Under the pieces are notes generated by a model. That model saw only the letters and a list, made by a program, of their open reading frames with translations. It did not search any database and was not told where the DNA came from. Both the position numbers and the translations under genes were made by a program. A DNA stretch of 64,000 bases from Octopus vulgaris (lineage: Eukaryota): NCBI GenBank assembly GCA_951406725.2, contig OX597815.1, positions 153,202,001 through 153,266,000 on the forward strand. The letters run 5' to 3'. Shown here piece after piece: positions 34,524 through 42,218 of this stretch (position 1 is the stretch's first letter; every line of letters begins with the position of its first letter).

Positions 34524-34771
34524 TACATAGACATAGACACAAAAATCTCAAAAGTAAATAGACACCTATCATAATACCGTTTTATCTGAAAGAACACTTC
34601 TCATTAGTATGGTGACCAGGTCAGTTAAATCGTTATAAATTGTCACAAGTACGTCTACTAAATACTAGAGTCAATATTTAGATCCATCAAACGACAATAT
34701 TTTCTTTCTGTAAACAAATCTGTTAAAAACGATGGTGTCTATTTATTTTTGATATCTTTGTGAATATACAT

Positions 34772-35155
34772 TCCTTTATTCTTTTATTCTTTTATTTGTT
34801 TCAGTCGTTTGACTGCGGCCATGCTGAAGCACCACTTTTAGTCGAACAAATCGACCCCAGGACTTATTCTTTGTAAGCCTAGTACTTATTCTATCGTTCT
34901 CTTTTGTCGAACCGCTAGGTTACGAGGACGTAAACACACCGTCATCGGTTGTCAAGCGATGCTGGGAGGGGGCAAACACAGACACACAAATATATATATA
35001 CAACGGGCTTCTTTCGGTTTCCGTCTACCAAATCCACTTGCAAGGCTTTGGTCGGCCTGAGGCAATTGTAAAAGACACTTGCTCAAGGTGCCACGCAGTG
35101 GGACAGAACCCGAGACCATGTGGTTGGTAAGCAAACTACTTACCACAGAGCCTCT

Positions 35156-35158
<3 letters not shown>
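34772..35158 (-). mobile_element. SINE family A
   Basis: Homologous to 2950-3360. Confidence 0.9.
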
Positions 35159-36448: not shown

Positions 36449-36954
36449 ATATGCGCCAGAGAAAAAATTTGTTTGCTTGTTATCAGTCGTAAGACACTTG
36501 TTGTTGTTTTCACCGTTAATGCTTCTGTATTTCATGTTTCTGTATTCCATTATTTTTTGTTTTTTTATATTCGTCCCTTTTGCTGTCCTGGTGTCCGTAT
36601 GCATTCGATCCTTCTTCCAGGAAATCTACGCTCCCAGCTTAGTTTTTCTAATGCTCGTTGCTTAGTTTTTCTTGAGGGCTGGCCGTGATCTAGTAATCTC
36701 AAGATTAATCAGCCGAAATTACTACGATGATCCGGTTCTTGACTGAAGACTGAGGGTTTCGAATGTCCTGTCCGTGTTTATTGTATCGTCTTCTCTGAGT
36801 TATACGTTCTTGTCCATGTTGTATTTTTCTACATACCTTTACATATACATATATATATATATCTTACATATGATAAAACGCAATGTGTCTCGTCGGTCAC
36901 TCTGGTAGAAGAAGGTTAAAACAACAAACGGATATATAAATGTTATATATCTTA

Positions 36955-37180
36955 CCTTTTGTCTTTTACTTGTCTCAGTCATTAGACTGTGGCCATGCTG
37001 GGGTACCACCTTAAAGAATTTTGGTCGAATGAATCGACCCCAATACTTATTTTCTAAAAGTACTGGTACTCATTATATCGGTCTCTTACGCTGAAGCGCT
37101 AAGCTATGGGAGTGTAAACACATCAACACCGGTTTGTCAAGCGATGGTCGACGGACAAGCACAGACACACACACACACAC

Positions 37181-37268
<88 letters not shown>

Positions 37269-37398
37269 ATCAAATTCACTCTCAAGGCTTTGGTCAGCCC
37301 GGGGCTATAGTAGATGACACTTGCCCAAGGTGCCACGCAGTGAGACTGAACCCGGAACCAGATGGCTGGGAAGCAAGCTTCTTATCACACATCCACGT
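36955..37398 (-). mobile_element. SINE family A with expanded internal (TA)n, abutting the RTE fragment
   Basis: Homologous to 2950-3360. Confidence 0.85.
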
Positions 37399-39080
37399 CC
37401 GTCGTTAGAAAGAATAAACTCTGCGCCAACACTTTTTGGGGGCGAAATACTTTTCAAATTGTCATACAATACTCTCAAATCGTGAGAGTTCGCAGCCTGT
37501 TCCAATTCTTGGACTTATTTTGATCACCAAGAATTTTTCATCTCACGCAGTTTTTCTATGTAGTTTTCATAGAGGTGTATAGGTATCTGTGTTTTGGTAA
37601 GTGTTTCTTTGAGATTCATGCCTTGTGCTTTTGTGCACAGTTTCTAGGAGAGGTTTGATTTGGTAATTGTTCTCATCGAACCAATCTTGTTGCTTGTGTC
37701 TGGCATATCCTTGAACTTCTTCAGCTGATGATTTGATGCTGTCACGAATATTGTGCTACAAAACTTACCTGTTTTCTCGAACTTTGAATTTAGATGCATA
37801 TCAAACTTTTTGTCGTTTCTATATTTTTTAAAGAGGAGACGTTTACCCTAAGAAGAATGCTGGATCCTAATTGCCTCTTTGTGTATGGTTTAACAAATAC
37901 CTCACTGCGAACCATTCTGTCTGGAGTTTTGTAGTTTTGTGAGTTCTGGTTAATCCGAAATCACTACAATCCTTGTACTTAGTTATAACATAGTTAAGCA
38001 TGTGTTAGTTACCAGATCGGTGATGTTTCCAGGTGACTTTCTATTTATTTGCCGACTGAAGCACTGTGATTGTTAGACCAAACTGTTGACAAAAAGACAG
38101 CTGTCGTAAACCGCTTTCATTCATTGCTCCTGCTCCATGCTTTCCTATTGCACTTGGCCGCATTGTGTGTTTGTTGCCTGTTCTGGCATTAAAATCGCCC
38201 ATCAGTATAATTTTGTCATAGTATAGGAATTTACTGATAACTGTCCGCAATTTGGAGAAGATGTGTTCTTGTTTGCATGCTGATAAAGTAGGTGCATATG
38301 CGTTGATTATGTGCATAGATAAGGAATTACCTATGGGGATACAGAATGCCATGAGACGCTCATCAATTGTTTGAGGGATGTATGGCGTATTAATGAGTCA
38401 ATTAATTGGCAAAGCCAACACCATGAATTCTCGGTTCATCTGCTGGCTTTACACTAAAGAAAAAAGTATAGCCATATCCAACTTCTAATTCTCCAGTGTC
38501 CGGATGCCTGATTTCACTTAGAGCGGCAATATCAATATTATAGGAGCCGATTTTCTTCGCAATTAGTGCTGTTTTCTAGAGTGTCCTTGCTGTCTTGTAA
38601 AGTTTTAACATTCTAACTACCAAAGATTAGCATGCTTCTTTTATTCCTCTTATCTTTATTTCAACTGCAACACACACGATGGCTAGACACCTGCAGTTAA
38701 TGCCAAGCTTATTTAAGGCAACACTTTTTAGGGTTCCTTTACTCAACCCACCTCCGATATCGGAGAAGCAGTATTACACCTAGATAGGACTGCTTGCCAT
38801 GCAAAGGAGGACACAGATCTTGCAGGTGCCTTCGGATTCTACAGAGAGACGGCCATCACCCTGTGTGCCGTCTATGTGTGGATAGGAACCTCCAGCAACA
38901 CCTTTTGCCTGTTCCCATCGCCATATCCCGTTACCATAGGACTTTCAACTCGCCTTAAAACTACCTCCACAATGAATTTGTTTTCAGTGGTACAGGCTTA
39001 TGTCACCCGTCACATTCGTCCAGATAGCCTAAACTCCGGTGCATATTATTGCCACTTGGCAAAAAGGCCGTCTGTGGGAT
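37399..39080 (-). mobile_element. RTE(BovB-like) LINE 5' part: 5' UTR, APE endonuclease, linker
   Basis: IINAYAPT...IILMGDFNARTG...IGKHG.GAMNESG...LTIT; downstream DWFDEN and ANSHDLRVLYDNLK motifs. 5' boundary approximate. Confidence 0.85.
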
Positions 39081-39212
39081 AACATATATCTAATATACTG
39101 CTAGTGAAGTACCCAACAAAGTTAATACATAAATGTTAAGAATTGCGATGCAATTAATTCATTTACTGTATTACATGGGCAAAGGTAAAATTATTTTTAC
39201 CATAAATTAATA

Positions 39213-39876
39213 ATACAAAATAAGAAAATGGAGAAATATATCTAAATCATTAATCAACTACCAGATAATACCCAATCACATACTTTATTAAACCACTACA
39301 TAAGAACATTAAGGTTAAACATAAAAATATATAACAAAACAGCGTACATGAATGAGTAATACAATAGAATAAGTACAATCATTATAAGAAGATATAAATA
39401 AATAAATATAAATATAAATATACACTATATCTTACAGCTGTTTCAGCCATGCAGATAAGTATGTCTCATTTTACCTATATTAGCCATGTATAGTATGTCA
39501 ATATGAAGTTACAAATGAGACATTTACAAAAATATCCTAAGGCCTCTTCGGAGATTCTAAGGTATAAACCAAATTACATATATGCTCATATAAGTGTGGG
39601 TACATACCCATAATAAATCATTTACATATATATATGAGTGCATATATATGAGATATAGTGTATATTTATATTTGTATCTATTTATATTTATTTATTTATA
39701 TCCTCTTATAATGATTGTACTTATTGTATTGTATTACTCATTCACGTACGCTGTTTTGTTATATATTTTTATGTTTAACCTTAATGTTCTTATGTAGTGG
39801 TTTAATAAAATATGCGATTGGGTATTATCTGGTGGTTGATTAATGATTTAGATATATTTCTTCATTTTCTTATTTT

Positions 39877-39880
<4 letters not shown>
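39213..39880. repeat. Inverted repeat, arms ~39213-39432 and 39651-~39880 (PLE pLTR-like)
   Basis: For example AAACCACTACATAAGAACATTAAGG vs CCTTAATGTTCTTATGTAGTGGTTT; right arm ends in (TA)n. Confidence 0.9.
39429..39555 (-). ncRNA. Type I hammerhead ribozyme motif
   Basis: AUCU-CCGAAGA-GGCC...GGCU-GAAA-CAGCUG-UA^AGAU. All three stems pair; U4C core variant; stem II insert holds its own hairpin (ATGTCTCATTT/AAATGAGACAT). Confidence 0.75.
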
Positions 39881-39933
<53 letters not shown>

Positions 39934-39964
39934 GTATGTATTATATATGTATGTATTATGTATG

Positions 39965-40021
<57 letters not shown>

Positions 40022-41789: not shown

Positions 41790-41870
41790 GTATATATATA
41801 TATATGTGTATGTATATATATACGCATATATGTATATATGCATATATATAAATACATATGTATATATATA

Positions 41871-42218
41871 CTCTTTTACACTTTTACTTGTTTCAGTCAT
41901 TTGATTGCAGTCATGCTGGAGCACCACCTTTAGTCGAGCAAATTGACCCCAGGACTTATTCTTTGTAAGCCTAGTACTTATTCTATCGGTTTCTTTTGCC
42001 GAACCGCTAAGTTGCAGGGCGTAAACACAGACACGCAAACATATACACACACATACATATATTTATTCATATATATACATATATGCCAAATTCACTCACA
42101 AAGCTTTGGTCGGCCCGAAGTTATAGCAGAAGACACTTGCCATGCTGTCACGCAGTGGGAATGAACCCGAAACCATGTGGTTGGCAAGCAAGCTACTTAC
42201 CACTCAGCCACTTCTGCG

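Follow-up and report, generated by a model that had tools for sequence, protein, structure and literature searches.

The closest described relatives of the element studied here are the Hydra-clade Penelope-like elements (PLEs) with a C-terminal endonuclease (PMC8557442, section 11). In the accessible part of that paper, these carry the motifs RW[K/R] and DKT, an RT YRDD, a CxCX5C linker and, at the C-terminus, a GIY-YIG domain with CxxC and CxH around E and N; they have (TA)n targets and a hammerhead in the terminal repeat, and the same set was found here. The clade is described as smaller than 3 kb, a typical size and no strict rule (PMC8557442), whereas the unit here is approximately 5.6 kb, with an ORF of 2.9 kb (~950 aa, with Asn-rich insertions) and a 3' region of ~2.4 kb. 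One octopus Hydra family, Hydra-1_Obim, is present in the supplement of PMC8557442; the likeness drawn here is to the clade description. The standard insertion form of EN+ PLEs (PMC8557442, Fig. 2 legend; PMC11167929) has head-to-head arms, a tail at one end and an AT-rich target, as does the locus analyzed here. PLEs are described as having (TA)n targets, and partners that are inverted and truncated at the 5' end, together with tails, are usual for them (PMC8557442); the tail has been linked to two internal RT start sites (PMC11167929). As far as these two texts were available, tails are described as 30 to 40 bp, whereas the tail here is 138 nt and is longer in other copies.

Minimal type I metazoan PLE hammerheads (PMC4209133) share with the present motif a short helix I, G10.1-C11.1, a location in the pLTR and a small palindromic helix III suited to dimers. 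Their helix II is given as 7 to 8 bp in the accessible text, whereas 85 to 100 nt with two extra conserved helices lie between A9 and G12 here, and the focal lineage, unlike them, has a family-wide U4C core. PLE hammerheads show weak activity as dimers and have been proposed to process PLE precursor RNA (PMC4209133). In vitro, hammerhead cleavage was dispensable for PLE insertion (PMC11167929). The idea that a ribozyme cut marks genomic 5' junctions is the same as that for the HDV-like ribozyme of R2 (PMC3774820, available in part); there the cut defines full-length ends, whereas at least 97% of the arms sampled here cross the site. Literature searches, whose coverage excluded most subscription papers, turned up no publication dealing with PLE 5' breakpoints located at the cut sites of hammerheads.

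The window analyzed was a 64,000-nt stretch of Octopus vulgaris DNA (contig OX597815.1, positions 153,202,001 to 153,266,000). Bases of the element are numbered from +1, the first base 3' of the predicted cut (39433^39432, minus strand). The locus consists of the following parts.

39075 to 39212, minus strand: 138-nt 'tail' (order in full-length units: pseudo-LTR, tail, ORF)
39213 to 39646, minus strand: left (long) arm, the element's 3'-terminal repeat, with its 5' truncation at -214 from the cut site
39647 to 39650, plus strand: 4-nt insert between the arms, TATG, probably templated
39651 to 39881, plus strand: right (short) inverted arm, from +1 (ambiguous, +1 to +3) to the 3' end of the repeat, without the tail
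39882 to 40020, plus strand: (TA)n/(TATG)n run adjoining the tail-less arm, the usual target of the focal family

By its sequence, the locus is a short remnant of a Penelope-like retrotransposon of the Hydra clade, with two arms placed head to head. The initial annotation had recognized a Penelope-like element with an inverted structure, in agreement with the RT/GIY-YIG features and head-to-head arms found here, and had correctly positioned, by sequence, a minus-strand hammerhead at 39555-39429 with a predicted cut at 39433/39432. Its observation that the right arm begins at 39651 after a mismatched base was confirmed: the arm opens with AGATATAGTG, the +1 sequence, and the preceding base is G. 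Its further claim that the duplication starts exactly at the cut was not confirmed, as TATG lies between the arms and ATATATGAG is present twice, at 39630-39638 and at 39644-39652, forming a local duplication at the junction. TATGAG is also the focal-family sense sequence immediately upstream of the left-arm start, and the TATG insert is probably a duplicate either of 39630-39638 or of this family sequence. The junction can thus be read as a 4-nt insert plus 2-nt microhomology (AG at +1/+2); since the AG may itself belong to the templated insert, the break of the right arm is placed only to +1 to +3.

The two arms were found to be 92% alike, and 10 nt are deleted from the left one. Both carry one allele that is missing from 29 of 29 other arms, and the seven substitutions and the deletion by which they differ are each confined to one of the two, indicating that they came from one source and then decayed. 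The start of the left arm lies in a patch of AT repeats within which other copies have their starts as well. The tail is 98% identical to that of another focal-family copy, is common to several copies, and is 83% identical to the stretch between the upstream pLTR and the ORF in a full-length sister copy. Elsewhere in the window, broken ORF pieces at 37305-38397 (minus strand), resembling a LINE endonuclease and RT region, lie such that the Penelope tail ends ~700 bp to their right. A repeat of ~450 bp, presumably an octopus SINE, occurs in three copies that are 77 to 86% alike (34764-35157, 36932-37399 and 41856-42214).

Genome-wide, a 31-mer from the 3' end of the repeat gave 2,610 matches at two or fewer mismatches and 0 in the control. 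Longer focal copies extend upstream through the 3' region to the GIY-YIG ORF, fragments of which lie 2.4 kb upstream of the repeat and are continuous with it. In a sister family, whose endonuclease is 80% identical, intact RT plus endonuclease ORFs of 955 to 960 aa were found (L320, 4774-7653, minus strand; L321, 1914-4778, plus strand), with long Asn-rich insertions between the two domains; intact ORFs were seen only there. Read by eye, the sister ORFs contain RWR, DKT, YRDD, CxCX5C, CxxC and CxH. The focal protein fragment P0001 contains the CxCX5C linker and the CxxC/CxH flanking E and N, and one focal copy has F in place of the second C; the RWR and DKT evidence for membership comes from the sister ORF and not from the N-terminus of the focal family. 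EN+ PLE features found comprise a single ORF upstream of the repeat with RT and C-terminal GIY-YIG, partial tandems (pLTR), an inverted 5'-truncated partner and a tail. By these motifs, by insertion into (TA)n and by the location of the hammerhead, the element classifies within the Hydra clade. The best named protein matches were from Argonauta, and a Pfam search with four PLE proteins gave no match. The many near-identical copies of the sister family suggest that it was recently active.

The inverted 5'-truncated partner is the normal insertion form of this element. In a sample of 45 head-to-head pairs, some of which were chosen by breakpoint and none by tail, 43 had the tail on exactly one arm, one on both and one on neither. 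Among the 43 one-tailed pairs the tail was on the longer arm in 24, on the shorter in 15 and on arms of equal length in 4. The arm starts were scattered from -1148 to +174.

The hammerhead motif of the left arm is made up as follows.

39429 to 39555, minus strand: type I hammerhead motif, assigned by sequence, conserved in 31 arms and in the sister families
39555-39552 and 39432-39429, minus strand: helix I, AUCU/AGAU
39551-39545, minus strand: core CCGAAGA (U4C)
39544-39541 and 39448-39445, minus strand: helix II, GGCC/GGCU
39449 to 39540, minus strand: long structured helix II extension with two further helices, showing covariation
39445, minus strand: C11.1>U change private to the window copy
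39444-39441, minus strand: GAAA
39441-39434, minus strand: palindromic helix III (CAGCUG-UA), followed by the predicted cut 39433^39432 and AGAU

The focal family departs from the core CUGANGA...GAAA...UH by its U4C, whereas in the sister family CUGAAGA, which is canonical, and GUC occupy the homologous place together with the same long helix II insert. The U4C change had been read earlier as a possible later inactivation of this copy. That reading proved wrong: CCGAAGA is present in 55 of 68 distinct focal copies, so the source elements already had it and it does not represent later damage. The remaining copies mostly have CTG (6) or CCA (5), the two CpG-decay products of CCG in about equal number. 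The damage private to the window copy is instead C11.1>U, with which the probability of helix II in the predicted ensemble was 0.0, compared to 0.91, 0.48 and 0.96 in three other copies; the competent fold is predicted to lie 11 kcal/mol above the best fold.

Helices I, II and III were found around the core, and helix II and its extension are conserved, with covariation across the sister families. Across 18 sequences, 95.5% of the cells of the structure were paired compared to 25 to 45% when the alignment was slid, and 4 of 25 pairs were changed on both sides, all of them in the extension and representing few events among related families. Helix I has just two invariant pairs of four, and helix III has two pairs as a monomer and forms an 8-bp palindrome as a dimer. 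Taken together, this is a conserved type I hammerhead motif with an 85- to 100-nt helix II extension, and its cleavage is a prediction from sequence. The long covarying helix II would escape the short-spacer descriptor quoted in PMC8557442 (available in part). Among the best 150 of 234 Rfam matches to the window, none was to a hammerhead family. An intron within the extension was considered and rejected as unsupported, since the candidate 3' splice AG is not retained in the older subfamily and the sole joint seen is not GT-AG. Outside the focal family, the hammerhead 3' half GAAACAGCT(G/C)TA occurred 9,461 times genome-wide compared to 184 in the control, and several of the matches listed show short CUGA-type cores upstream, so many other hammerhead-bearing families appear to share the palindromic helix III. 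One copy (L283, C4:35.09M) carries four tandem repeats of a 13-nt unit that runs across the cut site (-8 to +5).

The start of the right arm at +1 is probably an ordinary join of truncated arms, made through a short templated insert and AG microhomology, with the RNA uncut. In the proposed course of events, the RT-GIY-YIG protein would nick the AT-rich target, cDNA would be primed at two internal RNA sites, one within the tail and one at the repeat end, both cDNA strands would stop early, and microhomology, or one cDNA folding back, would join the arm ends. In this copy the tail belongs to the longer arm; one cDNA folding back onto AG at +1/+2 would therefore fit as well, with no need for an RNA end. 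Hammerhead cleavage would supply a minor share of template ends, likely ~1% or less.

The distribution of breakpoints in the focal family agrees with arms that mostly run past the site. A sample of 141 arms from 116 loci was assembled; because it leaves out the long copies collected earlier and favors inverted pairs, read-through is understated in it. Even so, 64 of the 66 arms reaching +2 continue upstream past +1, and the two that stop at +1 belong to one locus. Arm loss per base at risk was 0.004 at -100 to -13, 0.009 at -12 to +2 and 0.009 at +3 to +40, the last being an AT-rich stretch that loses arms at the same rate as -12 to +2. Breakpoints were then counted in a census requiring the +1 anchor and rejecting intact upstream bases (36 matches, 10 in the control, plus the best 100 of 107, 37 in the control), from which matches outside the family, copies that were intact or carried internal deletions, a single complex locus and the copy in the window were excluded. 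Among the matches listed, the 34 breaks at -11 to +1 numbered 7, 1, 3, 4, 2, 0, 3, 2, 2, 4, 0 and 6, respectively; +1, with six, was not the top bin, compared to seven at -11. The probability of six or more breaks at +1 was 0.22 under the first null and 0.042, 0.082 and 0.64 with microhomology weights of 1, 2 and 4, respectively, and the best-fit excess at +1 was 0 to 10% with an upper bound of 25 to 30%. By our own reading of the flanks, three of the six +1 breaks have microhomology of 1 to 3 nt. The seven breaks at -11 gave P = 0.01 under one null, with 4 to 6 expected under the others. Of 15 matches checked for a candidate pile-up at -12/-11, which RT stalling at helix II would have caused, 3 were intact or internally deleted copies; a control window at -30 to -13 was unusable, as its 12-nt anchor is common to other families.

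In the canonical-core sister family, a search with the exact anchor gave 18 matches (0 in the control) and 14 true breaks after four copies with deletions were dropped. A one-mismatch search gave 71 more matches, of which 52 were examined, yielding four new breaks, and the other 19 were excluded by inspection of the matched letters. The 18 breaks comprised seven at +1, four at -4, four at -7, two at -8 and one at -2. Seven at +1 compares with 0.8 to 1.8 expected (P <= 0.0012, under a null without higher loss in the AT-rich stretch downstream), and the best-fit excess amounted to 22 to 32% of the breaks within the 12-nt window. By our own reading of the flanks, microhomology of 1 to 2 nt is present at four of the seven. 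Among sister head-to-head pairs in the matches listed (C1-C2), 8 of approximately 28 have their hammerheads 1,098 to 1,148 bp apart, a cluster larger than that at +1. An (ATT)n run at about -500 to -455 in this family, within which two copies start, may lie behind this spacing.

The alternative that the right arm is a run-off cDNA of the 3' cleavage product, with RNA cut at GUA^A and the end joined with four extra bases, we regard as unlikely for the window junction. On this view cleavage would truly provide template ends, though a small part of them, perhaps via RNA dimers in which both partners are cut. The +1 start with its mismatched preceding base and the sister excess of 7 in 18 nearby breaks agree with it, as do the one of the four focal nulls that gave P = 0.04 and a conserved, covarying motif with a palindromic helix III. 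U4C considerably lowers activity in vitro, yet it supports viroid infectivity in vivo (PMC3088659, available in part), and the R2 ribozyme, whose cut sets the 5' junction of R2, is a precedent (PMC3774820). In 15 of 39 pairs with unequal arms the shorter arm carries the tail, which indicates that a short arm can be a cDNA in its own right; a template produced by cleavage is thus feasible mechanically. However, the focal family has no clear excess at +1, only ~1% of sister arms stop there (5 exact-anchor starts compared to 659 exact read-through copies), and the +1 share does not differ significantly between the two families (Fisher P 0.11). Microhomology at four of seven sister and three of six focal +1 breaks (the latter among the matches listed) weighs against cleavage as well, as does an AG at the window junction that can derive from the insert. 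For an anole PLE, hammerhead mutants insert normally in vitro and no RNA-seq reads started at the cut site (PMC11167929, available in part).

These counts also bear on the peak of breakpoints at the cut that the initial annotation had proposed as a check, and on its description of the junction as a nucleotide-resolution fossil of self-cleavage. The peak appeared as a small one in the sister family (7 of 18) and not clearly in the focal family (6 of 34 among the matches listed, P 0.04 to 0.64). The fossil reading was correspondingly weakened by the read-through of 64 of 66 arms, the insert and the microhomology, and it keeps the sister excess in its favor.

Two blunt +1/+1 loci, noticed after the fact, add to the case for cleavage. 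At C2:104.07M (L096), both arms start at +1 without a spacer and a short internal repeat also starts from +1, giving three +1 junctions at one locus; at C20:24.95M (L157), both arms reach +1 with one extra base between them. No natural palindrome is present at either join, whereas the other three symmetric joins lie on natural palindromes, two on CAGCTG and one on a TA step. Perfect head-to-head joins centered on the helix III CAGCTG palindrome were seen at L050 (C2:11.24M) and L264 (C23:44.56M). A search for symmetric joins gave 29 candidate sites, of which two were already assigned to the family, and 1 of 15 and 0 of 5 of those checked belonged to the family. Two RNAs paired via helix III and both cut would, in this model, give blunt +1/+1 joins. 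That a small share of PLE insertions is copied from hammerhead-cut RNA, with helix III dimers cutting both partners to leave blunt +1/+1 palindromes, is a tentative proposal. It is probable that cleavage does set some ends, at a low rate, the canonical-core family showing this best.

That DNA-level deletion, slippage or repair set the +1 start of a right arm which had been inserted in a longer form or arose afterwards is very improbable: internal deletions and slippage are common around the hammerhead motif in other copies and the window junction has a local duplication, but the one-tail architecture agrees with 43 of 45 pairs and the left arm starts in an AT-repeat patch used by other copies, as expected at insertion.

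The ordinary join of truncated arms is thus retained as the probable origin of the window junction. Approximately 99% of canonical-core copies run through the cut site, breaks show a small excess precisely at it, and a lineage with a U4C core has still spread widely; this argues that cleavage is not the normal setter of template ends. Cleavage as a source of template ends remains a testable minor route. If insertions were copied from cut RNA or cut dimers, their genomic junctions would be in vivo evidence of cleavage by a PLE hammerhead whose helix II is extended by 90 nt, covering the canonical-core family and perhaps the U4C family.
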